IMG/VR virus record: IMGVR_UViG_3300044730_000684
Location: 1-56,756 of that record
Reading direction: 5' to 3' (one strand)
Source: a virus
Lineage: Duplodnaviria; Caudoviricetes
Length of the DNA stretch: 56,756 nt
In this document: in pieces, positions 4,185 to 49,677 of the stretch
Numbering within the stretch: the first letter of the stretch is position 1
Layout of the letters: each line of letters starts with the position of its first letter
Position numbers and translations under genes: made by a program
Notes under the pieces: model-generated
The model's input: the letters and a program-made list of their open reading frames with translations, nothing else
The model's database searches: none
Told to the model about the DNA's origin: nothing

Positions 4185-4832
4185 ATGCCAGCCGCAATGA
4201 CCTTTACCAGTTTGCAGTCGGACATCCGCAACTACCTTGAGCGTGGTGGGGCAACGGACCCGATTGTCTTTGAACAGATTCCGCGTCTCATTACGCTGGC
4301 TGAGCGTCGGATTGCGCGTGAGCTGAAGATCCAGGGTTTTCAGAATGTGGTCACGATGACCATGCAGTCTGACGTTGCCGTGTATGCAAAGCCGGATCGG
4401 TGGCGCGATACCATCAGCATTAACTACGGCACCGGCACGGGCAACAACACGCGGGTTCAGGTCTATCCAAGATCGTATGAATATGTGCGTGAGTATTGGC
4501 CAAACGAAACCGAAACCGACCCGCCAAAGTTTTACGCTGACTACAATTACAACTACTGGATCTTTGCCCCAACGCCCGATGCGGCGTACCCGGTAGAGAT
4601 TCTGTATTACGAACTGCCGCCGCTGTTGGATGATACGAATCAGACCAACTGGTTGTCGGAGTACGCGCCCAACTTGTTGCTGTATGGGTCGCTTGTGGAG
4701 GCGACGCCGTTTGTAAAGGACGACCAGCGCGTACAGTTGTGGCAGTCCTACTACGACCGCGCTTTGGCGGCGTTGAATGGTGAAGACTTACAGAAGATCG
4801 TTGATCGGTCTACGAATCGTCGGGAGGCTTAA
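4185..4832 (+). CDS. Head-tail adaptor / tail tubular protein A-like
   Basis: I.LAE.RI.REL, FAP.PD..Y.VE..YY and TNWLS..APNLLLYGSLVEA pattern; size and position in the tail operon. Confidence 0.65.
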   Translation: MPAAMTFTSLQSDIRNYLERGGATDPIVFEQIPRLITLAERRIARELKIQGFQNVVTMTMQSDVAVYAKPDRWRDTISINYGTGTGNNTRVQVYPRSYEYVREYWPNETETDPPKFYADYNYNYWIFAPTPDAAYPVEILYYELPPLLDDTNQTNWLSEYAPNLLLYGSLVEATPFVKDDQRVQLWQSYYDRALAALNGEDLQKIVDRSTNRREA

Positions 4833-4834
4833 CA

Positions 4835-6031
4835 GTGCCTAGCTTTACTCAAACTTTCGGCGGAACGAACATCTATCCAAGTGATGTCTCGTACCGTTAT
4901 GTGTCCCTGACGATTGATCAGGTGCTGGACTGGCCGCTAGAGACTGCGCCGTCAAATGATGTCGTGGCATCCATTATGGATGTTAATGCGACGACGACCA
5001 GCCTTGTCATTACGATGCCGGATGCGCGGGATGCAAGTACCGGCGAAACGGTGTTATTTAATAACGTCGGTTCTAACACCTTTACGGTCAAGACCAGCAC
5101 GGGCGTGCAAATTTGCGCACCCACTTCGGGCAGCACGTTTCAGATTTACCTGACGGACAACAGCACGGAGTCTGGAGCTTGGCGTTCGTTCCAATATGGT
5201 GCATCGGCTTCGGCTGCGAACGCGGCGGCACTTGCGGGTCTTGGGCTGAAGGCGATTGCGACGACGCTGAATCAGTCGGTTCCGGTCAGTACTTTTAGCA
5301 CCACCTACACCGCTGCCACGAGTGACCGTGCTAAGGCATTGGTATGGACGGGAGGCGCAGGGACTCTTGCGTTTGATACTGCCCCTACTCTGGGCAACGA
5401 CTGGTTTGTCAATGTCCGCAATAGCGGCACAGGCGATCTGACGCTAAACCCAAGCAGTTCAGAGACGATCAACGGTGAGCTGACTCTTGTGTTGTCTCCG
5501 GGTGACAGCGCGATTGTCGTTACAAACGGCGTACAGTTTTGGACGATTGGCTTTGGTCAGTCTGCTGTATACGCTTTTAGCTTGCTTCAGATTGATGTAT
5601 CGGGCAGTGGAAATTACACGCTGTCAATTGCGGAACTGAACAAGACGGCTTATGTGTTTACTGGCACGCTGACGGGTAATCGGGACATCATTGTTCCGAC
5701 CACGGTGCAGCAATACTGGGTCAGCAATCAAACCTCTGGGTCTTATACGCTTGGAATGCGTACATCTGGTCAAGCCAGCCCCGGTGTCACGGTAGCAGCC
5801 GGTGCCCGAGCCATTTTGTACTGCGACGGAACAGATGTGGTGGATGCCGACACGGCAACGATTGCCATTCCGGTTACCGTGGCTCAAGGCGGAACTGGCG
5901 CAACAACGGCTTCTGGAGCAAGAACCAACTTGGGCGCAACGTCGATTGGTAACGCGGTCTTTACGGCTGCGAGTACTTCTGCGGCGCAGATTGCGCTGGG
6001 TCTTGACCCGATTGAAGGCGGTAGTTACTGA
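4835..6031 (+). CDS. Tail structural protein (beta-rich, fibre or baseplate-like)
   Basis: GTG start; Thr/Ser/Gly-rich; VAQGGTGATTASGARTNLG fibre motif; ends IEGGSY. Confidence 0.7.
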   Translation: MPSFTQTFGGTNIYPSDVSYRYVSLTIDQVLDWPLETAPSNDVVASIMDVNATTTSLVITMPDARDASTGETVLFNNVGSNTFTVKTSTGVQICAPTSGSTFQIYLTDNSTESGAWRSFQYGASASAANAAALAGLGLKAIATTLNQSVPVSTFSTTYTAATSDRAKALVWTGGAGTLAFDTAPTLGNDWFVNVRNSGTGDLTLNPSSSETINGELTLVLSPGDSAIVVTNGVQFWTIGFGQSAVYAFSLLQIDVSGSGNYTLSIAELNKTAYVFTGTLTGNRDIIVPTTVQQYWVSNQTSGSYTLGMRTSGQASPGVTVAAGARAILYCDGTDVVDADTATIAIPVTVAQGGTGATTASGARTNLGATSIGNAVFTAASTSAAQIALGLDPIEGGSY

Positions 6032-7641
6032 TGCCACTTCAGCCGGTCATCGTTCGCTCCGAACCCGGAATTAAGCGGGACGGAACGAAGTTTGAAGGTA
6101 ACTTTTATGTTGACGGGCAATGGGTCCGTTTTCAACGTGGGTTGCCGCGTAAGATCGGTGGGTATCGCGCACTCCAAGATCGACTGGATGGCATCGCCCG
6201 TGGCATGCACATTCACAATCATAATGGTTATACCTATGTCCACATAGGTACGGCAGCGGGCGTGTTTCGTTTTCGTCTCAGCCAGAACGGACAATCCAGC
6301 ATTGTTACCGATCGCACGTACAGCGGATACGTCGCCAACTCCGATAACCTTTGGCAGTTTGATGTGGCGTTTAACACCACAAACAGTCAGAACGAAATTT
6401 TGGCTCATGCAGCGCCAAACATCGAAGACATCTCTTCAGATGCTGCGGGTCAGCTTTATCAAGGTTTTGATAACGGAACGAGCGAGTTGGTCCCGGTTTC
6501 TGGCATTACCGTCTCTGGCGGTATCGTAGCCCTTGCTCCGTATGTGTTTGCGTATGGATCAGATGGCTTTATCCAATGGAGCCGCGCAGGGTACACGGAT
6601 GACTGGTCCGGCGGCGATGCTGGTGAGGCGCGTGTTACGAGTCAAAAAATCGTTAAAGGATTGCCTCTACGATCCGGTGCCGGTAACGCGCCATCTGGAC
6701 TTTTCTGGTCATTGGATTCAGTCATTCGTGCGACGTATGTTGGCGGTGCTGCTGTATTTCAGTTTGACACCATTACCTCGCAGTCAAGCATCCTCTCTTC
6801 GCAGAGCGTGATTGAGTACGACGGTATTTACTTCTGGTGCGGTGTTGACCGTTTCTTGATGTTTAACGGTGTCGTGCGTGAAGTGCCGAACTCGCTGAAC
6901 CTGAACTGGTTCTTCGATAACCTAAACTACTCTCAGCGCCAGAAAGTATTTGCTTTTAAGGTTCCGCGCTGGGGCGAAATCTGGTGGTGTTACCCGAGGG
7001 GTAATGCAACTGAGTGTACGCATGCCGTCATTTACAACGTTCGTGAGAATACGTGGTACGACACGGAACTCCCGAACGGCGGACGCTCTGCGGGTCAATA
7101 TGCGCAGGTGTTTAGTTCACCCCTCGTAGTAGGTGTGATTGATACCGAAACGGTTCAATTCCGTGGAACGCAAGATACAGAGCGTCGCGTAACAGAAGAC
7201 GATCAACCGCGAATCATTAATGACCCAAAAGGTTATGTGGTTTGGCAGCATGAATACGGAACGGATGAAATTAATGGCGACAGGATTCGCCCCATACAGT
7301 CTTACTTTGAAACGGCGGATATGTCTTTGGTTGCGGCACCTGAGCCACAAAACATGGCTGTTCGTGTTGAGTACATGGAGCCAGATTTTGTTCAGTCTGG
7401 AAACATGACCGTACAAGTTACGGGTAGAGCAAATGCTAAAGCAGGCGAAGTAACAAGCGATCCTCAAACAATTTATGCAACGCTAACGGATCGTCAGCAG
7501 CAGCTTGTCTACTTCCGCGAGATTCGTCGAGAAATGCGCTTTCGATTTGAGAGCAACACGGTTGGCGGGAACTACCAGATGGGGCAGATCATTGCCCATA
7601 TCGAACCGGCTACGGGTACGGTCCTTGGAGAGAATCCATGA
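6031..7641 (+). CDS. Tail nozzle / head-stabilisation protein (tail tubular B-like)
   Basis: 536 aa, beta-propeller-like composition, VRFQRGLPRKIGG start, EIWWCYP...VIYN..E.TW; lies just before the ejection genes. Confidence 0.65.
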   Translation: MPLQPVIVRSEPGIKRDGTKFEGNFYVDGQWVRFQRGLPRKIGGYRALQDRLDGIARGMHIHNHNGYTYVHIGTAAGVFRFRLSQNGQSSIVTDRTYSGYVANSDNLWQFDVAFNTTNSQNEILAHAAPNIEDISSDAAGQLYQGFDNGTSELVPVSGITVSGGIVALAPYVFAYGSDGFIQWSRAGYTDDWSGGDAGEARVTSQKIVKGLPLRSGAGNAPSGLFWSLDSVIRATYVGGAAVFQFDTITSQSSILSSQSVIEYDGIYFWCGVDRFLMFNGVVREVPNSLNLNWFFDNLNYSQRQKVFAFKVPRWGEIWWCYPRGNATECTHAVIYNVRENTWYDTELPNGGRSAGQYAQVFSSPLVVGVIDTETVQFRGTQDTERRVTEDDQPRIINDPKGYVVWQHEYGTDEINGDRIRPIQSYFETADMSLVAAPEPQNMAVRVEYMEPDFVQSGNMTVQVTGRANAKAGEVTSDPQTIYATLTDRQQQLVYFREIRREMRFRFESNTVGGNYQMGQIIAHIEPATGTVLGENP

Positions 7642-7884: not shown

Positions 7885-10800
7885 ATGAGTCGTTTTTACA
7901 CCTATGGTGACATCCCTGACGTAAGAGGGGAGTTTTACGAAGAAGGACCCAGTGGTCTTGGTTTTTTTTCTGAACCATCGTTTGACTACTCACCTGTATT
8001 TTCGCAGCCTTTAGAAGATGCTCCTTTAAGTTACTTTCAAGATGATCGACAACTAGAGTTGGATCGTCAGGCTGAAGAGAGACGCCAGTTTGAACTTTTT
8101 GAAGCACAGCGCAGACAGGCTGAGCAAGAATATGCTCGTCGCCTTGAACAAGAGCGTGCAATTGAACTTGCTCGGCAACAACAGATTGCGCGTGAGCAAG
8201 AGGCTGCGCGACAAGCAGAAGCTGCGCGTGTTGCTGAAATGGTCCGTCAGCAGGAGATGGCTCGACAAGAAGCATTAAGACAGCAAGAGATGGCTCGTCA
8301 AGAGGCATTAAGACAACAAGAGATTGTTAGACAGCAAGAAATGGCTCGTCAAGAAGCGGAGCGTCAGCGTCAGGCTGAGATTGCTCGTCAGGCTGAACTT
8401 CAGAGACAGGCCGAAATGCTGCGCCAACAAGAAATGGCGCGTCAAGAAGCTCTTCGTCAAGCAGAAATGGCTCGTCAACAAGAGATGGCTCGACAACAAG
8501 AGCTTGCAAGACAAGAAGTTGAGCGTCAGCGACAAATTGAAGTTGCGCGTCAGCAGGAAATTGCAAGACAAGAGGCTGCTCGTCGCGCAGAAGAATCTCG
8601 TCGTGCAGAGGATTTAAGGCGTGTTGAGCAGCAACGTATTGCCGAGGAGACTCGTCGTGCAGAGCAGGCCCGTCTTGCTCGTGAAGCACAACTAGCGCGA
8701 GAAGCCGAGGTTGCTCGTAGAGCAGAAGAGGAAGCAACCAGTCGTCGTCAAGCCGAGGCTGCAAGAAGAGAGCAGGAGCGTGTTGCTGCTGAGCAAGCGC
8801 GTCTTGAGCAAGAACGGGCTGCTGAAGCGCAGCGTCAGGCTGAGATTCAGCGTCAGGCCGAACTGCAACGCCAAGAAACAGAGCGTCAGGAAGCTGCCCG
8901 TCGCCAAGCGGAAATGGCAGAGATGCAACGTCGTCAAGCGGAGCAAGAAAACTCTATGCGTGTTGAGCAAGAGCGTCAAGCACAACTTCAGCGTCAGCAA
9001 GAGCTGGCTGATTTGCAGCGTCGTGAAGAGGCTCGTAGGGCAGAAGAAGAGCGAGCAAGAATTCCAACTCCTCAAGAAGAAGTTGCTATTTCACAACCGC
9101 CGCTTAGTCAGGTTGGAGATGAGTTAATTCCGCAAGCTCCTCCTGAAGATCCAATGCGTGGAGTTAGTGGTCCGGAAATGTTTCGTTGGTCAGACGGGAC
9201 ATATCACTTTAGACCTGAAGAATCTGGTCAAAGAACTCCAATTGATCAGCTTCCTGACTATTATCGTCGCTTAACTGAAGAGGCTTTGGCTAAGTCGCCT
9301 CTGCAAGATATTCCAGACTATATGCGTCAAAATCTTGTAGGGCCGTCTCGCACTCCTCCAGAAATGCCTGAAGAATTAATTCCCACTCCTCGCGGGGAAA
9401 ATGTTCCGATTTCACCGCTTACCTCGCTGCCTAGTGGCCCAGACCCAATTAGCGACTCTTGGGGATATCGTGGTGAAAATGTTCCGGTAGCGCCGCTTGA
9501 AAGTTTACCCGGACCGGGATTGGCTGGAGATGATGGAAGACTTCCGCGTGGGGAGGACGTTCCGGTAGCGCCGCTTTCTGCCCCAACCTCCTCTGGAGCA
9601 GCGCCATCAAATTGGCTTGAAAACATGAAGCAATTTACTGGTGGCGCTACACCATCTCCGCTTGCTTACCTTTCAACCAAAGGAACAGGAGGTGCTAACA
9701 TTCAAGAAGGCACTCCTCAAAAAACGCTTTCTGATCTTCTTAAAGCAAACAAATTTGAAGAAGCATTTAAATTTGCTGAAGCAAACAATCTTCAACAATT
9801 GCTTGCTGTTCCTGCTTATCTTAGGGACCTTCGTGATCCATTTACCAAAGAAGAAGCGCAACAGTTTTTAAACGCTGCTCCAGCAAACTTTTTGCCAAAC
9901 CTTTCCGGTACTGGAAATCTTGAAAAGTTTACATTTGATCCGCGTGGTGCGGCAGAGCGTGGCGCTTTTGGGTGGATGGGGTTTGACGAAAAAGGTCAAC
10001 CTATTGCATCTGAAACTGGGTTTCCAAGACTTGATGCGGCTTGGAAAGTTGAAGAACTTGATCCTAAAGAAAGCATTTTTCAAAAAATATTTAAAGCTGC
10101 TGCGCTTGCCACTGCCGTTGCTGGGGGTGCGCAACTTCTTGGTGGAGTAGGCGGCGCTGGTGGCGCCACGGCAGGTGGGGCTGCTGGAGGTGCTGGAGCA
10201 GGTGCTGGCGGATTGGCTCCGGTGATTCCTGCTGGCGTTCTTCCCGGATCGACTGCGGCTGCACTGGGTGGTGGATTGCAGACATTTGTTATTCCCGGAA
10301 CCGCAGCCGCTGGGGGTCTTGGCGCAGCCGGAACCGCTGGTCTTATTGGCGGCGGACTTGCTGCCTCTCAACTTGGCGGCGGGGCTGCGGCTGCGCCTAC
10401 GGCATCGACTGCTCCAACCACGCCTGTTGATCCACTTCAAGAAATTCTTGTCACCGGATCAAAAGTTCCCCCCGCTAGTTTAAGCGCAATCGGCCCCGGC
10501 ACTTTGGCATCTTTAAACTTGATGCGCGGTGTCAGCGATATTCCGGTAGACATTTATGGAAGACCTGTTGAGCCACCTCCGGCAGAAGCTCCGCCTGAAA
10601 CGCCGCCAGAAGAGCCGCTTAAGGAAATCCTTGTTACCGCACCTAAACCTATTTCTGCCTTAGATATTGCAGCGGGTGCTACGGTGCCTGCGCTTTCTAA
10701 AACAATTGCAGACATGGGGTACAGAGCGCCTGCTTTTGAAGGAACTCCGATTGAGAATATCCCTGAAGTTGTTGTTCAAGGAACCGCTCCAAAGCCGATT

Positions 10801-11589
10801 GACTTAACTTCGGTTGTTGGTCCCTTGACTGCTGCTCAACTAACGCAGGGCTTTACACAGCCTCAAGTTGATCCAACAACGGGTGAACTTAAAGAGCCGC
10901 CTAAGACGCAGCAGGAGTTGGATGCTATTGAAGAAGCCTTGAAGACCGGCAAACCAATACCGGGAACTGCAAGCGTTGTTGATAAAATTAAGGACGCTTA
11001 CGATAAATATAAGAAAATTAAAAGTATTGCGCAGATTCTTGGCGGTCTTGGTGCAGCCGCTACTGGGTATAAAAAACCAGTTGCCACAGCAGCAGCACCC
11101 CCCACAGTTTTAGGCGGCGCGTTGCCGAAGTACACTTATGCCCGTCAGCAACTGAGCCCAGACATTGATTACTACACCTACGGCACTCGACCGGAGGCGC
11201 GGTTCTTTGAACAGGGGCTTAAATTAGAACAGCCTACGCAACCTGAGCCGCCGCAACTTCCGCCCTCTAAGCCACCGGGTGATGAGCCGGTCTTTGCCAC
11301 GGGCGGTCTGACGGGCTATGCCAAGGGTGGTAGCAAGAAGTCCCGTTACGTTGCTGGCCCCGGCTCCGGACGGGATGACAAAATCCCGGCGCTGCTGAGC
11401 GATGGGGAATACGTGATTGATGCTGAAACGCTGGCTCTGCTCGGGGACGGCTCGACCAAGGAAGGTGCTCGGCGCATGGATAAGTTCCGTGCTAATATCC
11501 GCAAGCACAAGGGTCGTGCCCTATCGCGTGGCCGGATTAGTCCAAACGCAAAATCGCCTAGTAAATACATGGGCGGAGGGTTGACCTAA
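7885..11589 (+). CDS. Large internal virion (ejection) protein, 1234 aa
   Basis: About 330-aa E/R/Q/A helix, Pro-rich repeats, Gly/Ala hydrophobic segment, C-terminal GPGSGRDDKIPALLSDGEYVIDA domain; follows the nozzle gene. Confidence 0.75.
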   Translation: MSRFYTYGDIPDVRGEFYEEGPSGLGFFSEPSFDYSPVFSQPLEDAPLSYFQDDRQLELDRQAEERRQFELFEAQRRQAEQEYARRLEQERAIELARQQQIAREQEAARQAEAARVAEMVRQQEMARQEALRQQEMARQEALRQQEIVRQQEMARQEAERQRQAEIARQAELQRQAEMLRQQEMARQEALRQAEMARQQEMARQQELARQEVERQRQIEVARQQEIARQEAARRAEESRRAEDLRRVEQQRIAEETRRAEQARLAREAQLAREAEVARRAEEEATSRRQAEAARREQERVAAEQARLEQERAAEAQRQAEIQRQAELQRQETERQEAARRQAEMAEMQRRQAEQENSMRVEQERQAQLQRQQELADLQRREEARRAEEERARIPTPQEEVAISQPPLSQVGDELIPQAPPEDPMRGVSGPEMFRWSDGTYHFRPEESGQRTPIDQLPDYYRRLTEEALAKSPLQDIPDYMRQNLVGPSRTPPEMPEELIPTPRGENVPISPLTSLPSGPDPISDSWGYRGENVPVAPLESLPGPGLAGDDGRLPRGEDVPVAPLSAPTSSGAAPSNWLENMKQFTGGATPSPLAYLSTKGTGGANIQEGTPQKTLSDLLKANKFEEAFKFAEANNLQQLLAVPAYLRDLRDPFTKEEAQQFLNAAPANFLPNLSGTGNLEKFTFDPRGAAERGAFGWMGFDEKGQPIASETGFPRLDAAWKVEELDPKESIFQKIFKAAALATAVAGGAQLLGGVGGAGGATAGGAAGGAGAGAGGLAPVIPAGVLPGSTAAALGGGLQTFVIPGTAAAGGLGAAGTAGLIGGGLAASQLGGGAAAAPTASTAPTTPVDPLQEILVTGSKVPPASLSAIGPGTLASLNLMRGVSDIPVDIYGRPVEPPPAEAPPETPPEEPLKEILVTAPKPISALDIAAGATVPALSKTIADMGYRAPAFEGTPIENIPEVVVQGTAPKPIDLTSVVGPLTAAQLTQGFTQPQVDPTTGELKEPPKTQQELDAIEEALKTGKPIPGTASVVDKIKDAYDKYKKIKSIAQILGGLGAAATGYKKPVATAAAPPTVLGGALPKYTYARQQLSPDIDYYTYGTRPEARFFEQGLKLEQPTQPEPPQLPPSKPPGDEPVFATGGLTGYAKGGSKKSRYVAGPGSGRDDKIPALLSDGEYVIDAETLALLGDGSTKEGARRMDKFRANIRKHKGRALSRGRISPNAKSPSKYMGGGLT
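8245..8580 (+). repeat. Degenerate coding tandem repeats (RQQEMARQEAL-type)
   Basis: 33-bp units at 8245-8277 and 8278-8310 plus further degenerate RQxExA units. Confidence 0.85.
9391..9576 (+). repeat. Three coding repeats with a 78-bp period (RGE[ND]VP[IV][SA]PL)
   Basis: Units start at 9391, 9469 and 9547. Confidence 0.9.
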
Positions 11590-13028
11590 TGGGTGTCCTA
11601 GACTTTCTTTTTGAGGGCAGCGCCCCGACTCCCGGCACAACGACCGGAACCACCACTGTTCAATTGCCTGAGTGGTACACCCAGTACACCACCGACATGC
11701 TGGGGCGTGCTCAAGCAGCCGCAAACCTTCCGTATGCCCAGTATGGCGGTCCTCGGATTGCCGGGTTTACTCCGACTGAGAGAGCCGGGTTTGAGGCTAC
11801 CAAAGCCGCAGCGGCGGCGTATCAGCCTTTCCTACAGCAAGCCGGTGCCACTTTGGGTCAAGCAGGCGGAGTTAGCGGGATGGCAGCGGCTGAGCCAACA
11901 TTTGCCCAAGCGGCGGGTATGAGAGGTGCCGTTACGGCAGCGCCTTATTTTACTCAGGCCGGAGGGATGTCTGGATTAACGGCAGCTCAGCCCATGTTTA
12001 CGCAGGCCATGGCTCCGATTCAGCAGGCCGGTCAAGCATCGGCAGTAACCGCAGCCAGTCCCTTCTTGGCCGGTGCAGCTCGCACGTTCCCGCAGGCGGC
12101 TCAGGAATACATGAGTCCCTATCTCAAAAACGTCGTGGAGCAGATTGGCGACATTGGCGTGCGTCAGCTTCAAGAGAAATATCTTCCAGCGGTCGGCCAA
12201 GAGTTCATCCAAGCCGGTCAGTTTGGCGTGGGTCCGGGCAGCACCCGCATGGGCGAGTTTGGCGCTCGGGCGTTGCGCGATGTGAACGAAGCCATTATTG
12301 CCGAACAGGCCAAGGCGCTACAGGCGGGATACGGGCAGGCTGCGGACATTTACGGTCAGGATGTGGGTCGCTTGGCTCAGCTTGCCGGTACGGTCGGTCA
12401 GCTCAGCACGGCGGATTACAACCGGCTTCTTGAAAGCGGTGTTCGCATTGCCGACATTGGCGCAAAGACTGGACAGCTTACGAGTGACGATGCACAAAGA
12501 CTGGCCGAGATCGGAAAAGTAACAGGCACTCTTACGCAACAGGATGCCGCCAACCTTGCGCGAATCGGAGAGGCAAGAGGTCAGCTCTCTCAGCAAGATG
12601 CTGCCAATCTTCAGGCGCTGGCATCGAAGTACTCCATGCTCGGAGAGGCTTCTCAAACGATGGGCTTGCGAGGCGGAGAGGCTATTACCGGCGTTGGCGA
12701 AAAAGAGCGTCAGATGCAGCAGGCCAATCTCAACTTGGCCTATCAGGACTTCTTGCGTCAGGAGCAGTACCCGAAAGAGCAGATCAAGTTCTTGTCGGAT
12801 GTGCTTAGTGGCGTGCAGTTGCCTTCAACAACGGTTCAGACCAAAACAGAAATGCCAGCAATGCCGGGGGGTGCTTCTGGAATTGAAAAAGCAATCTCTG
12901 GTGGGACCGGAATAGGAACTCTTATTGATTTGTATAAAAAGTTCTTCCCATCCGGGTCAAGCGGCTCAACTACTATGCCAGACGTAGATTATATAGATGA
13001 GCTTCGACGGCTTGGCATTTTGAAATAA
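11589..13028 (+). CDS. Internal virion / DNA-transfer protein
   Basis: Y.GPRIAGFTP and YMSPY...V motifs, Gln/Ala/Gly-rich helices with 16- and 18-aa repeats, YQDFLRQEQYP. Confidence 0.75.
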   Translation: MGVLDFLFEGSAPTPGTTTGTTTVQLPEWYTQYTTDMLGRAQAAANLPYAQYGGPRIAGFTPTERAGFEATKAAAAAYQPFLQQAGATLGQAGGVSGMAAAEPTFAQAAGMRGAVTAAPYFTQAGGMSGLTAAQPMFTQAMAPIQQAGQASAVTAASPFLAGAARTFPQAAQEYMSPYLKNVVEQIGDIGVRQLQEKYLPAVGQEFIQAGQFGVGPGSTRMGEFGARALRDVNEAIIAEQAKALQAGYGQAADIYGQDVGRLAQLAGTVGQLSTADYNRLLESGVRIADIGAKTGQLTSDDAQRLAEIGKVTGTLTQQDAANLARIGEARGQLSQQDAANLQALASKYSMLGEASQTMGLRGGEAITGVGEKERQMQQANLNLAYQDFLRQEQYPKEQIKFLSDVLSGVQLPSTTVQTKTEMPAMPGGASGIEKAISGGTGIGTLIDLYKKFFPSGSSGSTTMPDVDYIDELRRLGILK

Positions 13029-13046
13029 GTTTAGGGAAAGATACTT

Positions 13047-14204
13047 ATGGACAGAGAAAAAGCCGCACTGCTTGGTCTTCCTTATGAAGAGGAAGGGGTT
13101 GAAGCTCCTTTATCCGGCATTAGCTATCGCGATCTTTTGCGTAAACGCCTTCAAAAAGATATTGAAGAGTCTGAAACGGAAGAGAGCCAAAGCTTTCAAA
13201 CTGTCCTTAACAACATTGAACTGGCCAAGCAGCGTCTTTTAGCTCAGCCTTCGCGCCAAGAGACTCTTCAGCAAATAGCGTCCAAGCTGACGCAGCCTAG
13301 GGGGCGTACTGATCCGCGCTTTTTCGAGCGGCGAAACCTATACACGTTCTTGCGTGATATTGGTGAGTACGGATCTGAGCGAGAGGCTGCGCAAAAGAAG
13401 GCACAAGAACAAGCGGCTAAGCTTGAAGATCTTGCTGCTAAGTACAAGTTTGAGCGTGCGCAAGAGCGCGGCAGTAAGGCTCGCCAGTTGATGGCGCAGT
13501 ACTTGTCGAAGGAAGAGGCTGAACTTCCTTCTGAGGTTCGTCAGGTTGAGTACTATCAAAACATTGTTGCAAATCCCAATCAGTTTGCTCCAGACAGAGT
13601 TCAGTTTGCAAAAGACTGGCTTGCAAAAAATGTTCGTGTTCCGGAAGACGGAAAAGATAAGACTGGGCTTTCTCCGGCTGAGATTAGATCTATTGGTATG
13701 GAAGTTCGATCGCAGACTGACCCAGCTAGAGAAAAAGTTGGTTTCGCAAATGATGCCCTTGGCAAGTTAAAGCTTGCTATGGAGGGTAACCCGCAGGCCG
13801 AGGTTCAGGTTGACCGTGCTTTGGCAACGCTTGCTGGCGATAAGCAACTCAGTCTTGCGGAAGTTCAGAGCATTACCGGAGCTGGGTCTTTTGCTCAGCG
13901 CGTAACTAACGCTATCAGCAAGTTTTTTACTGGCGGCGCTGGCGAGCTTACAAATGAGCAGAAAAAAGAACTTCTTGAGTTTTACGAAGATTATTACGGT
14001 AATGCCTTTAACAACGCTAGGGAGCGTGTAAAAAGAATTTATTCTGGCACTGGATATGAAGCTTTGCCAGAAGACATCTTTGGCTCTCGCTATGTAACTA
14101 TTCGTGAGAAAAGAGAAAAGCAAGAAAGAGAGGCAGCTTCTGCTAAACCGGAAGGCGGGTCTATTAGCACAAGCACCGGCAAAACAGGCAGAAAGGTAGA
14201 TTAA
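13047..14204 (+). CDS. Probable internal virion protein (helical)
   Basis: 385-aa charged helical ORF within the ejection-gene block, with an RBS. Confidence 0.65.
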   Translation: MDREKAALLGLPYEEEGVEAPLSGISYRDLLRKRLQKDIEESETEESQSFQTVLNNIELAKQRLLAQPSRQETLQQIASKLTQPRGRTDPRFFERRNLYTFLRDIGEYGSEREAAQKKAQEQAAKLEDLAAKYKFERAQERGSKARQLMAQYLSKEEAELPSEVRQVEYYQNIVANPNQFAPDRVQFAKDWLAKNVRVPEDGKDKTGLSPAEIRSIGMEVRSQTDPAREKVGFANDALGKLKLAMEGNPQAEVQVDRALATLAGDKQLSLAEVQSITGAGSFAQRVTNAISKFFTGGAGELTNEQKKELLEFYEDYYGNAFNNARERVKRIYSGTGYEALPEDIFGSRYVTIREKREKQEREAASAKPEGGSISTSTGKTGRKVD

Positions 14205-14216
14205 TAGGGGACTTCG

Positions 14217-17200
14217 ATGGCTAATAATGTCTACGTAATTGCTGGCCAGAAGTACGCATTTGACGAGCCGCTGACCCCAGCAGAGCTGCGCGAACTTGAG
14301 GAAAAGCTTGGCGGCAAGCCTGCTGCTCCTACGCCCGCTCCTGCTCCTGTTGCGGCTCCTGCCCCTGCTCCCGTTGCTCCCAAAAAGCCGGGAGAACCTA
14401 CCGGCACGCTTGAGTACCTTTGGAATGCTGCGAAAAGAGGTGTAACGGGGACGACTTCTATGCTTGGCGCTGGATATGAAACCGCCGTCGAGATGAATAG
14501 AAGACTTGAGGAAATGGCCGAACGTGCGCGTCGTGAAAAAATGGGGGTTAGAGAGCGTTTACAAATGTTTCGCGAAAGCGATTACTTCCCAAGCCTTTCT
14601 GAACTTGCAGAAAAGTATGGCGAACAACAGCGTAGAGCCGCTCGTGTAACTGGCGCTCGTGATTTAACGGCTCCGGGTCCTGTGACAGAAATTGTTGGAG
14701 CTGGTGTTGAGGCTGCGACAGATCCGTTTGGTTTGGTAGGTAAACTAAAGGCCATTCCAACAATTGGCCGCGCTACTGGTGAGTTCTTAACCGGCGTTTC
14801 GGCGGACATTGCAGGTCGTGGTGGCGCTGCGGCTGAAAAGGCCATTACTGGCGAGGAGTCAGGAACAGGTCGTTTAGTAGCCTCTTTGGCGGGCGGTGCT
14901 GCAAGCGCGTCTCAGCGCGAGGCTTTAGCAAAACTTGCTGAAGAAGTAGCTGAAAAGGCAAGGCAAGTACCGCTGCGCGCTTCCTCTGTCAAGGCGGAAG
15001 AAGATTATGCCAAGGGCGCTGCCAAGCGGTTGCTTGAATTTGCAGCTAAAGAGCAGGGCGCTAAGTCCATTGACGAAATTATCGCTGAAGCTGGAGAAGC
15101 CTCTCGTTTTGCTGCGGGTAAAGAAGCGCCGTTGCTTGTTGCTATGGCGGATAACCCTGTAATCAGGCAGCAGGTCATTAGGCTTGCCAAGAGCGATCCT
15201 GTATTTCGCCAACAAGTTAATGAAACACTGGCTTCGCTTCGTGGCGACATGCGTGCAAAGGTTGAGAAGATCTTTGGCGTTCGTTATGAAGCTGGCGGCA
15301 AAGAAGCGTCGATTTTTGAACCGGGATATGTTCCGGGTAAAGAGCCTCCAAAGGGTGTTGATGTAGGAAACGTAGCCCAAAGACGAGAGGCACTAACTCG
15401 ACGTATTGAGGATATTGCGTCTGGGTTTGAGCCTACTAAGTCCAAGGAAGAGATTGGCGCTAGCATTGAAAGTCTTGTTGAAGACAAGAAAAAGCTTGCT
15501 CGTCAGGAAGTTTCTCCCGAGTACGAAAGCCTTTTGGCAGAGGCCCGTAGTTCTGGTGTAAAAATGCCGCCAGAGGGCGTTGGTACTATTTACGACTTTG
15601 TTCGTCAAAACAATTTGCGCGACATTTTTGGAAAAGGAACAGACCTTGACCGTCGCATCATGGGCGTTTTAGCTCCGAAAGAAATGCCTGTTCCGGGAAC
15701 TGCTGAAACCGTTACCGAACACTTGCCCATGAGCTTTGACAACGTAGAGTCACTCAAGAAGGCAATTAACGAACTCAAGCGGCAGCGTATGAGCGAAGAC
15801 TCAATGCGCAAAGTTTTGCAGCTTGAAGAGGTGGTTGACGAAGCTCGTAAGACCATACCTGGAGACTTTAGCGACAGGCTTAACGCAATTGACTTGAAAT
15901 ACTACGAAAAGGTAGGCGTGCCGTTTGGCGCTCAAGGCGTTAAAGATATTGACTCCAAAAAGTACGCGACTCAGGTTGCTCCTGTCATCGTTAAGAACAG
16001 CGAGTCTTTTGATCAGTTTATCCGTGCTGTGGGAAAAGAGCAGGGGTACAAGATTGCCGAAGACTCCATTATTAGTGAGATTTACGATAGAGCGGTTAAA
16101 AACGGTGAGTTAAATCCCGGCGCTTTGGCCAAGTATCTCAAAACTAAAGAGGGCATCATTCGTCAGATTCCGGGTCTTGAGGACAAGCTTCGCACGGCTC
16201 TTTCCGACGATTCTGCTTTAAGAGCAAGGATTAGCCAGCTTGACGACGCTGCGGCTGCGGCTGAAAAACGTATTGCGGATAACGCGCTGACTAAGTTCGA
16301 TGCGCCTAACTACAACGCGCTTGCTCGTTCTTTTATGGTCGATCCCAAGTCGCGTGAGAAGCTGCTGCGGGATATTGGTGACTTGGACGCTGATTCTGCC
16401 AAGGCTGTTCGTCGAACTCTTCGTGCTGAAGTTATTGCTTTGGCAGATGAGAACCCGGCTGGGTTTATGGATTACTTGATGAATCCGGCGAACAAGGATG
16501 CCTTGGACAAGATCTTTGGCTCTGCGTTCCAGCCTGCCTTGAAAAAAGTAGGGTTGATGGCTGACAAGCTTTCTCAAGCCGATATCAGCAAGGTAGGCGT
16601 TGCCGTAACTAAAGAAGACCTAGACCCGCTAGCAAAACTGGCTCCGGGCTTGGATATTCCCTACATCTCGTCAACTTTTCGAGATCGCATCACGAGCTTG
16701 CCGCAAAAGATTGTTCGATTGATGTCTCGTGTTAACTCTGCGCGTCTGTTGCAAAAAACCGACGAAACGATCAAGGAGCTATTGCTTGACCCGAACGGGG
16801 TGCAAAAGTTGGCCAACGTAGCTACGGAGATCGACTTCTCACTAAATGCTGCGGATAAAGTCAAAAAGCTGGGGAATGCTGTTGCGGCGGTATTGCCACG
16901 CGCTTTCTACACCTCCGGAAAAACTGCCGTAGCCGGAGAGGAACGTGAGCAGCGTGCTGAAGAGCGACGCAAAGAAGTTAGCTCAGATATCGTTTTAGGC
17001 GGCTTTGAGGATGAGTTTGGACAACCATCAGAGAGTGGTGCCCCGCCTATTTCTGCTCCGCCAGAAGCTCCTGAAGAGGGAGCTGAGCCTTACAGCTACG
17101 AAAGCCTGACCAGCAATCAGGTCAACGAACTGGGGCGCTATCTCGATTCTTTGGGCATCAACAAAGACTTCTTGATGAATCCCCAAACATTTAATTCCAC

Positions 17201-17318
17201 CCCCATAGAAAAGCGTAAGCAATTGTTTGCGCGGCTTCAAGCGAAAAACATGGCCCGTGGCGGAGTTATGTACACACCTGCTGAGCAGAACTTGCTAAGA
17301 AGGTACGCAAGCAGGTAG
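14217..17318 (+). CDS. Large probable internal virion (ejection) protein, 1033 aa
   Basis: Helical, PAPA linker, Gly/Ala membrane-like segment; last large gene of the virion operon. Confidence 0.7.
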   Translation: MANNVYVIAGQKYAFDEPLTPAELRELEEKLGGKPAAPTPAPAPVAAPAPAPVAPKKPGEPTGTLEYLWNAAKRGVTGTTSMLGAGYETAVEMNRRLEEMAERARREKMGVRERLQMFRESDYFPSLSELAEKYGEQQRRAARVTGARDLTAPGPVTEIVGAGVEAATDPFGLVGKLKAIPTIGRATGEFLTGVSADIAGRGGAAAEKAITGEESGTGRLVASLAGGAASASQREALAKLAEEVAEKARQVPLRASSVKAEEDYAKGAAKRLLEFAAKEQGAKSIDEIIAEAGEASRFAAGKEAPLLVAMADNPVIRQQVIRLAKSDPVFRQQVNETLASLRGDMRAKVEKIFGVRYEAGGKEASIFEPGYVPGKEPPKGVDVGNVAQRREALTRRIEDIASGFEPTKSKEEIGASIESLVEDKKKLARQEVSPEYESLLAEARSSGVKMPPEGVGTIYDFVRQNNLRDIFGKGTDLDRRIMGVLAPKEMPVPGTAETVTEHLPMSFDNVESLKKAINELKRQRMSEDSMRKVLQLEEVVDEARKTIPGDFSDRLNAIDLKYYEKVGVPFGAQGVKDIDSKKYATQVAPVIVKNSESFDQFIRAVGKEQGYKIAEDSIISEIYDRAVKNGELNPGALAKYLKTKEGIIRQIPGLEDKLRTALSDDSALRARISQLDDAAAAAEKRIADNALTKFDAPNYNALARSFMVDPKSREKLLRDIGDLDADSAKAVRRTLRAEVIALADENPAGFMDYLMNPANKDALDKIFGSAFQPALKKVGLMADKLSQADISKVGVAVTKEDLDPLAKLAPGLDIPYISSTFRDRITSLPQKIVRLMSRVNSARLLQKTDETIKELLLDPNGVQKLANVATEIDFSLNAADKVKKLGNAVAAVLPRAFYTSGKTAVAGEEREQRAEERRKEVSSDIVLGGFEDEFGQPSESGAPPISAPPEAPEEGAEPYSYESLTSNQVNELGRYLDSLGINKDFLMNPQTFNSTPIEKRKQLFARLQAKNMARGGVMYTPAEQNLLRRYASR

Positions 17319-48762: not shown

Positions 48763-49677
48763 ATGGCAGTCCCAATGCGTAGTACTGACTTTCGTTCCAT
48801 TGTTGAGCCTATTCTTAACGAGGCTTTCGATGGCATTTATGACCAGCGTGCTGACGAGTGGAAGCAAGTATTCGTCCAGCAGCAGGGCATTCCCCGCAAC
48901 TACCACGAAGAGCCGGTTCTGTACGGATTCGGCGCTGCTCCGGAACTTCCGGACGGCACCCCGGTCACGTATGACGCTGGCGGCGTGCTCTTCTTGCAGC
49001 GTTACGTCTACAAGGTCTACGGCCTTGCATTCGCGCTCACGAAGGTACTCGTGGAAGACGGTGACCACATCCGTATCGGCCAGACCTATGCCAAGCACTT
49101 GGCGCAGTCGCTGATCGAGACGAAGGAAACCCTCGGCGCTAACATCCTTAACCGCGCTTTCACCTCCGGCTACAACGGCGGTGACGGTGTGACGCTTGTT
49201 GCGACGAACCACCCGATTGCTACGGGTACGTTCAGCAACCAGCTCACGACCCCGGCGAACCTGTCCCAGACCTCGCTTGAGCAGATCCTCATTCAGATCC
49301 GCAACGCTGTTGACAACAACGGCAAGCGCATCCGTTTGAACCCGGAGAAGCTCGTTGTGTCGCCGTCGAACGTGTTCCAAGCGGAAGTGCTCCTCAAGAG
49401 CGTTCTCCGTACTGGCACGGCTGACAACGACATCAACCCGGTGAAGTCGATGGGCCTCCTCGCTGGCGGTCAGGCCAACCTCTCGCGTTTGACCTCGACC
49501 ACCGCTTGGTGGGTGAAGACGGACGCGCCGGAAGGTCTGAAGCTGATGATGCGTCGTGGCCTTGAGAAGAGCATGGAAGGTGACTTCGAAACCGACTCCA
49601 CGCGCTTCAAGAGCACGGAGCGTTATGCGTTCGGATGGACCGATCCTCGGACGGTCTATGGCACAGCTGGCGTTTGA
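48763..49677 (+). CDS. Major capsid protein (HK97 fold, Mu gpT-like annotation class)
   Basis: 304 aa; GGDGV.L....HP, L...SLE, P.KL.V, DFET...RFK..ERY.FGWTDPR; GGAGG RBS; terminator after. Confidence 0.9.
   Translation: MAVPMRSTDFRSIVEPILNEAFDGIYDQRADEWKQVFVQQQGIPRNYHEEPVLYGFGAAPELPDGTPVTYDAGGVLFLQRYVYKVYGLAFALTKVLVEDGDHIRIGQTYAKHLAQSLIETKETLGANILNRAFTSGYNGGDGVTLVATNHPIATGTFSNQLTTPANLSQTSLEQILIQIRNAVDNNGKRIRLNPEKLVVSPSNVFQAEVLLKSVLRTGTADNDINPVKSMGLLAGGQANLSRLTSTTAWWVKTDAPEGLKLMMRRGLEKSMEGDFETDSTRFKSTERYAFGWTDPRTVYGTAGV

Follow-up and report, generated by a model that had tools for sequence, protein, structure and literature searches.

The window analysed here, a stretch of 56,756 nucleotides that spans the IMG/VR virus record IMGVR_UViG_3300044730_000684 (Duplodnaviria; Caudoviricetes) from position 1 to 56,756, encodes a protein of 1234 amino acids in which three short motifs resemble the TonB boxes of bacterial TonB-dependent transporters. 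This protein, P0002 (7885..11589; this and all other features given below lie on the + strand), was called as an open reading frame and is presumed to be an ejection protein or large virion protein. A preliminary description, made from the letters of the DNA, had listed the motifs as LQEILVTG (10435-10458, residues 851-858), LKEILVTA (10618-10641, residues 912-919) and IPEVVVQG (10759-10782, residues 959-966), and translation confirms all three. The reading favoured here is that they mimic a TonB box and may recruit the host protein TonB in the periplasm, in the way known from TonB-dependent bacteriocins. Judged by sequence, this reading is about equally likely to be right or wrong, and the evidence on both sides is set out below.

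Written as 11-mers, the boxes are PLQEILVTGSK (box 1, residues 850-860, 10432..10464), PLKEILVTAPK (box 2, residues 911-921, 10615..10647) and NIPEVVVQGTA (box 3, residues 958-968, 10756..10788), which reach 28.5, 21.6 and 21.8 bits, respectively, with a matrix built from 103 unique 11-mers of the phage family. Box 3 is the least canonical of the three, with Gln in place of Thr and without a basic residue at position +7. The K.P/APKPI-type sequence that was said to follow the motifs is present as SKVPP, PKPIS and TAPKPI. Three copies of a loose pattern are observed in P0002 at an expectation of 0.09, a count reached in none of 5000 shuffles of the whole protein and in one of 5000 shuffles of residues 781-1000. 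When all six frames of the 56,756 bases are scanned with the family matrix, four scoring windows attain at least 10 bits, namely the three boxes and one window of 11.1 bits at 15819-15851; scores above 20 bits are confined to the boxes.

The motif is conserved among homologues. A search with residues 640-1234 yielded 255 matches, of which the best 120 were combined with the query to a set of 121 proteins. A regular expression for the motif matches 100 of these. Each of them carries one to six copies, which add up to 211, whereas 200 shuffles average 12.1 copies and never exceed 22; for a strict pattern the count is 187 copies versus 1.9 in shuffles. Enrichment over shuffled controls, the check proposed in the preliminary description, is thus found. 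The family consensus reads P-L-[EDPAQ]-E-V-V-V-T-G-[ST]-[KR]-P-P and the commonest spacing from box to box is 48 residues. The same motif emerges when no pattern is imposed: when Gly/Ala runs and YTYG are disregarded, EEVVV, LEEVV, PLEEV, EVVVT and VVVTG are the 5-mers that recur most frequently in single proteins. Moreover, 19 of the 21 proteins missed by the regular expression contain related repeats of at least 6 bits, exemplified by PLDEVKVETER.

As a control for kinship, 1.84 billion representatives at 50% identity were searched, and the best 150 of 5059 were examined. Among the best 45 representatives, boxes of 12 bits or more are present in 36, and 27 have two or more of them, as compared to three of 45 in shuffles. 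The following 105 representatives, whose similarity to P0002 is limited to the C-terminal domain, include 21 with at least one box and eight with at least two (shuffles: none of 105), and here the boxes, of the form DEIVVTG[ST][RK], are set in different flanks. Persistence of the motif across representatives at this level of identity argues against the notion that the boxes have no partner at all and are either a site for a maturation protease or a by-product of repeat expansion, an explanation regarded as very improbable. In the T4 prohead protease site, L-x-E is the element resembled by the boxes, and a weak match to a head-protease PHROG is located at 48763-49677 of the window. However, the conserved residues of the boxes follow the Glu (V-V-V-T-G-x-K/R), and L-x-E does not accommodate those boxes in which P-E or T-E precedes the core.

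Comparison with genuine TonB boxes was based on 30 TonB-dependent transporters, which were found by their Plug domain in four metagenome-assembled genomes (MAGs) labelled Caulobacter, Fluviibacter, Methylomonas and Nitrosomonadales. In 25 of the 30 proteins the best window of the phage matrix falls at the TonB-box position, defined as within 40 residues upstream of the Plug domain, where 1.85 would be expected. Since the regular expression had been inspired by TonB boxes, a test was confined to the five positions that it leaves free (-3, -2, -1, +6 and +7). At these positions, 25 of the 30 true boxes score above the 90th and 14 above the 99th percentile of the background, so that the claimed resemblance is an objective one that includes flanking positions unconstrained by the pattern. 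Unsupervised motif discovery in the N-termini of the transporters alone gave EETELEEVVVTASRTEQ (LEEVVVTASR), and the motif of the phage proteins reads PEDPLEEVVVTGSKPPP (PLEEVVVTG[ST][KR]). These two motifs display a mean column correlation of 0.58 at offset 0, a value reached by none of 2000 column permutations (null maximum 0.54), and the correlation is at least 0.7 at nine out of ten positions of L-E-E-V-V-V-T-x-S-[RK]. The phage motif therefore carries the sequence consensus of a TonB box, with the qualification that box 3 is not among the top two windows of the transporter matrix.

In the reverse direction, the window that scores highest with a matrix derived solely from transporters overlaps the phage motif in 61 of 100 proteins of the family, and a profile hidden Markov model (HMM) of transporter N-termini ranks 96 of the 121 family members higher than any reversed decoy (best 11.4 versus -1.1 bits). 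The matches of this profile end at or just past the box. Together with the differing spacing, this excludes the sequence SDIPVDIY behind box 1 as a captured plug start (DVPxSVxV). No Pfam Plug match was obtained in eight box-rich proteins even at E<=10.

A TonB box is expected in a flexible and exposed segment, and this is how the surroundings of the boxes appear. In an AlphaFold2 model of residues 640-1234, calculated from an alignment of 35 sequences with a mean predicted local distance difference test score (pLDDT) of 46, all three boxes are situated in segments with a pLDDT below 50, which is a proxy for disorder and no proof of it. Burial in a fold, named beforehand as a finding that would speak against the proposal, is accordingly not predicted. 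The region from residue 850 to 1000 contains 16% Pro, which agrees with the Pro-rich and presumably flexible linker of the preliminary description, and is followed by a helical and hydrophobic part. Directly upstream lies the membrane-like segment that had also been noted, a Gly/Ala-rich, uncharged and hydrophobic stretch (residues 735-850, 10087..10434) that is by composition and hydropathy a candidate for membrane insertion. Within it, residues 761-850 consist of 57% Gly and Ala with 1% charged residues, and Kyte-Doolittle averages over 19 residues reach at least 1.2 between residues 735 and 827. The segment is present throughout the family (alignment A1).

These features suggest the following course of events, in which exposure in the periplasm, binding of TonB and a force-dependent role can be inferred. 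P0002 would leave the virion through the tail at infection, and its delivery to the periplasm is suggested by the place of the gene in the tail and ejection module. The Gly/Ala-rich segment would insert into a membrane, and the following Pro-rich, unstructured stretch would thereby be left in the periplasm, displaying the boxes. Each box, with the core E-[VI]-[VIL]-V-T-[GA]-x-[KR], might then pair as an additional β-strand with the C-terminal domain of TonB, like the boxes of outer-membrane transporters and TonB-dependent bacteriocins, and the TonB-ExbB-ExbD complex, driven by the proton motive force, would pull on the chain or anchor it. Such a pull could help to extract P0002 from the tail or could position a trans-envelope conduit for the DNA. 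Multiple boxes on each chain, and multiple chains in each virion, would permit repeated or multivalent engagement. The ratchet envisaged in the preliminary description would be compatible with the regular spacing and the variable copy number of the boxes.

A number of observations weigh against recruitment of TonB. To begin with, the case for it is built wholly on resemblance and context. With the transporter-only matrix, the top two of about 1226 windows in P0002 are box 2, at 13.4 bits, and box 1, at 6.7 bits, of which the former lies between the 95th (11.1 bits) and the 99th (13.9 bits) percentile of shuffle maxima and the latter near the median shuffle maximum of 5.6 bits, and box 3 is found outside the top eight. 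Likewise, boxes 1 and 2 attain -4 bits with the HMM of transporter N-termini, so the reciprocal evidence from P0002 alone appears modest. In the subfamily of the window, moreover, the sequence behind the boxes is at least as conserved as the boxes themselves. Box 1 is followed by GPGTLAS.NL..G.SDIPVDIYG, which includes the conserved stretch GPGTLASLNLMRGVSDIPVDIYGRP (residues 870-894, 10492..10566), box 2 by ISALDIAAGATVPALS and box 3 by PIDL...LTAAQL.QGFTQP.VDP (PIDL...LTAAQLTQGFTQPQVDP). In some members of this subfamily the Thr of the box is changed to Arg, Tyr or Gln, or the Glu is replaced (LQTFTVTA), and the subclade with PLDEVKVETER repeats, which have a period of 25 residues, is further removed from the consensus. 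Because the boxes are embedded in these longer conserved units, the functional unit seems to be larger than a TonB box, and by sequence a structural repeat fits at least as well.

A structural β-strand repeat is in fact the main rival. Here, the box would be the strand of a unit of 25-55 residues composed of a strand, a short amphipathic helix and a Pro-rich spacer, and folding or oligomerization of these units would be restricted to the virion or to the ejected state, for instance as a conduit spanning the periplasm. In that case, convergence on a sequence well suited to an edge strand would account for the resemblance to TonB boxes. Besides the conserved sequence that runs on past boxes 1 and 3, this is favoured by the regular spacing (mode 48 residues, 25 in the EVKVETER subclade), by the copy number, which varies from one to six as that of structural repeats does, and by short helices behind the boxes in the AlphaFold2 model. 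However, the same model shows no predicted fold for this region (pLDDT 25-45), and the flanks match TonB boxes beyond the needs of a generic strand (Leu at -2, an acidic residue at -1, Ser/Thr at +6 and Lys/Arg at +7). The recurrence of boxes in different surroundings in distant relatives likewise does not fit a larger repeat unit. In addition, the phage matrix is selective for TonB boxes: among 95,088 residues of bacterial open frames from 46 loci it finds 12 windows of at least 12 bits, and all 12 are TonB boxes of transporters. A purely structural repeat is considered rather unlikely.

A further set of points against TonB recruitment concerns relatives that lack the motif. No box is found in 84 of the 105 distant representatives, in 20 of 23 loci from MAGs, or in the homologues of phage DSL-LC04 and Synechococcus phage MinM2. 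Since boxes are missing from so many relatives, the box array is a frequent but dispensable accessory module outside the core function of the protein. The 23 MAG contigs with the C-terminal domain of the family (L001-L023), which are 50-63 kb long, are binned to at least ten phyla, including Chloroflexota, Bacteroidia, Bathyarchaeia, Saccharibacteria and Pseudomonadota. Most likely, they represent phage genomes that were mis-binned. The scatter of these related contigs across phyla also counts against the proposal. Taken together, the claim that P0002 engages TonB stands in part: it gains from the conservation of the motif, its low-confidence structural context and the match to TonB boxes, and loses from the inclusion of the boxes in larger repeat units and their absence from many distant relatives.

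If the boxes do dock a strand-adding partner, it might be one other than the TonB of nutrient transport. Candidates are domain III of TolA, a TonB paralogue with another role, the POTRA domains of BamA, Lpt proteins or a phage protein. The C-terminal domains of TolA and TonB bind their ligands alike and TolA is a target of phages (PMC7391070), and the sampled genomes hold two to seven TonB_C matches each, which would leave a choice of paralogues. However, the phage consensus equals the consensus of transporter boxes, and the window encodes no TonB_C-like domain. In four TolB proteins, the phage matrix yields no window above 0 bits, as compared to up to 27 bits for TonB boxes. Since all four TolA-binding N-termini of TolB receive negative scores, the likeness is specific to TonB boxes, and a TolA box is ruled out on sequence. 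Overall, a different partner seems improbable.

The assignment of P0002 to the virion follows from its genomic context. According to the IMG/VR record, the genome is complete, with 56,756 bp, direct terminal repeats and a G+C content of about 52%, and it encodes a terminase, a portal, a capsid protein, tail fibres and an SU10-type adaptor. The adaptor (4185..4832; PF24175, E 5.8e-30) is a tail protein of short-tailed phages, and its presence indicates a short tail. Downstream follow the gene of a virion structural protein (6031..7641; phrog_3287, E 1.8e-37) and, 3' of it, a run of large open reading frames of 1234, 479, 385 and 1033 amino acids. The first of these is P0002 and the other three (11589..17318) are presumed to be further ejection proteins, the product of 479 residues matching phrog_4287, 'DNA ejection protein', weakly (E 1.8e-5). 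The gene order is shared with Caulobacter phage GB2A, in which the structural protein is followed by a small open reading frame, the P0002 homologue gp065c, two open reading frames and a 'lytic tail protein'. It is also shared with phage DSL-LC04, where the homologue is labelled 'tape measure' and the module ends further downstream with a gene annotated as 'DNA transfer protein'. Based on this shared order, P0002 is best read as an ejection protein or other internal component of a short-tailed phage, an assignment drawn from gene context. Its large size, hydrophobic segments and location in a tail-proximal structural module are those of an ejection protein.

A role as tail tape measure protein was considered and rejected. 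P0002 has no match to a Pfam family, resemblance to annotated genes is confined to its last ~100 residues, and its matches to 'tape measure' PHROGs cover 27-53 residues at the C-terminus (residues 1135-1187), so that full-length similarity is lacking; a tail-tube gene was not found among the 36 open reading frames scanned (14 and 22), which are part of all those in the genome. No tRNA genes were detected in the genome, and megablast against 50,697 records of cultured phages returned no close match.

The ejection proteins of podoviruses, such as gp14, gp15 and gp16 of T7 and gp7, gp16 and gp20 of P22, are large, are encoded after the tail genes, and are expelled before the DNA to bridge the cell envelope. 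The gene order of these phages is similar to that of the P0002 module. Searches of Pfam and PHROG revealed no sequence relationship between P0002 and the T7 or P22 proteins, and to our knowledge no TonB-box-like motif occurs in the latter.

Borrowing of the Ton and Tol systems as such is already known, since bacteriocins pirate TonB by means of a TonB box and filamentous phages pirate Tol. With TonB-dependent transporters such as FhuA and BtuB, P0002 has in common the consensus of about ten residues, LEEVVVT[AG]S[RK], and its location in an unstructured segment. It differs from them in that the boxes reside in a virion protein, occur in one to six tandem copies within the family and lie far from the N-terminus. 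P0002 furthermore has neither plug nor barrel (no Plug match at E<=10), and the profile of transporter N-termini matches the box only. A functional precedent is provided by bacteriocins. In pyocin S2, the disordered N-terminus contains a TonB box and engages TonB1, and uptake depends on both TonB1 and the proton motive force (PMC11658791). Group B colicins and pyocin S2, the latter via FpvAI, are foreign proteins with their own TonB box in a disordered, Pro-rich region that is threaded into the periplasm, whereupon TonB and the proton motive force pull them in, and in these respects P0002 is proposed to be alike. However, bacteriocins rely on a transporter for entry and have a single box close to the N-terminus, whereas P0002 has several boxes and would arrive through the tail as a component of the machinery that delivers the genome. 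Compared with the phage boxes, the box of the pyocin (MVITH) deviates more strongly from the consensus.

A second parallel is the Ff phage protein g3p, whose N1 domain binds TolA domain III by β-strand augmentation (PMC7391070). The g3p protein resembles P0002, if P0002 does recruit TonB, in being a virion protein that engages the periplasmic domain of a Ton/Tol-family protein linked to the proton motive force. In contrast to P0002, it does so by a folded domain instead of a linear motif, it binds TolA instead of TonB and it belongs to another class of phages. For phages T1 and phi80, infection depends on TonB and on the proton motive force; the accessible part of the source, a 2024 review of TonB-dependent transport, treats phages solely as users of FhuA, describes the TonB dependence as acting via this receptor and makes no mention there of a TonB box borne by the phage (PMC11658791). 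The view that no such motif had been described for a phage ejection protein is upheld by a full-text literature search, in which no TonB box in a phage virion protein was found; most subscription journals and supplements are outside its coverage.

If the boxes do recruit TonB, its piracy would extend from bacteriocins to viruses. What drives ejection proteins and the first DNA across two membranes in short-tailed phages is a long-standing question, and for some phages a dependence on an energized membrane has been established, but not the device that provides the coupling. If carried by the phage itself, a TonB box would offer a concrete and mutable handle on this problem. It would predict a dependence on TonB and ExbBD that does not map to the receptor, as well as competition with nutrient transporters for TonB, and hence a new route to phage resistance with its own trade-offs. 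The family concerned is very large, with 5059 representatives that share the C-terminal domain and many box carriers among the best 150 of them. The idea could be tested at the bench, because harmless cultured relatives exist in the Riverwalk cluster of Caulobacter vibrioides phages, among them RW, RLK, KcrB and GB2A (PMC11053796). The GB2A homologue contains PVDEIVVTPSQ, which scores 13.4 bits, and a weaker variant, PVDELVIKPPT, below 6 bits.

Outside the P0002 family, the motif was sought in IMG/VR by exact scans for EEVVVT[GA] plus the class of the following residue, which returned 118 loci with 119 open reading frames in 50 clusters. By a rough estimate from amino-acid frequencies, tens of heptamer matches would arise by chance. 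The single exact heptamers in unrelated phage proteins are close to this number, a further point against the proposal. Singletons were for this reason not counted as evidence and were set aside, among them a family of about 190 residues with GLEEVVVTGSR, a Neck1 protein and a RecE-like protein, and among the exact-scan cases weight is given only to those that have several boxes or are conserved. The scans also recovered true transporters (clusters 5, 16 and 17; confirmed by Pfam). On the viral-classed contigs L158, L128 and L184, whole TonB-dependent transporter genes with Plug and barrel according to Pfam are present, which may be either host flanks of prophages or genes carried by the phage.

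One conserved case is the family of T4 gp48-like tail-tube caps, which is not homologous to P0002. In 25 of 120 members an N-terminal extension carries a box of at least 12 bits, as opposed to two of 1200 shuffles. The family comprises L074:41-1258 and its homologues P0244-P0363, which match 'baseplate tail tube cap' (phrog_230, E 1e-44) and stem from marine myovirus-like contigs. L074 itself has two boxes 14 residues apart, the median box position in the family is residue 46, and cultured relatives match the C-terminal domain only. It is conceivable, albeit tentative, that tandem TonB boxes on injected phage proteins are a widespread and hitherto undescribed form of energy coupling. TonB-ExbBD would haul the unfolded ejection protein by way of successive boxes, so that the initial step of genome delivery would draw directly on the proton motive force, whichever receptor the phage uses. 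Such coupling would cover the ejection proteins of podoviruses and possibly the tail-tube caps and tape measures of other phages.

Further loci with an exact EEVVVT[GA] are L090, L108, L110, L154, L143, L127, L132, L176 and L183. Several of the clusters from the exact scans represent proteins of the injection apparatus. They include three of tape measure proteins and one of a 779-residue protein at the tape-measure position, 3' of tail-tube and baseplate-hub genes. Virion proteins of phrog_12050 and phrog_11190 are located beside a baseplate wedge gene, and L132 displays three boxes. In another case, a protein of 796-1077 residues with the box at residues 4-7 adjoins adaptor-like phrog_10775 and phrog_3287 tail genes.

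The remaining parts of P0002 are arranged as follows. Residues 55-400 (8047..9084) form a coiled-coil-like expansion rich in Arg (21%), Gln (20%), Glu (21%) and Ala (19%), with RQQEMARQEA-type sequence over about 350 residues. In alignment A1, it attains its full length only in P0002 and its closest relative P0006, and a shorter version is seen in P0033 and P0056. If helical, this expansion would be about 50 nm long. A Pro-rich stretch connects it to a conserved helical domain at about residues 612-734 (9718..10086), which contains LSDLLKANKFEEAFKFA and nearly invariant columns in A1. The best-confidence blocks of the AlphaFold2 model are found in this domain, with a pLDDT of 50-79 for residues 640-719.

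The C-terminal domain (residues 1121-1234, 11245..11586), with DKIPALLSDGEYVIDAETLALLGDGS and further downstream HKG, is the most conserved part of the protein and accounts for most of the 39 invariant columns of A1. It defines the superfamily of 5059 representatives of 50% identity clusters (E<=1e-3) and is also present in phage isolates of Caulobacter, cyanobacteria and a gammaproteobacterium. Public labels for proteins with this domain vary between tape measure, calcium-binding and solute-binding protein. Finally, a YTYG motif is situated at the extreme N-terminus of P0002 (MSRFYTYG, 7885-7920) and recurs 5' of the C-terminal domain (DIDYYTYGTRPEA, ~11020-11060), and YYTYG occurs at least twice in 63 of the 121 family proteins.

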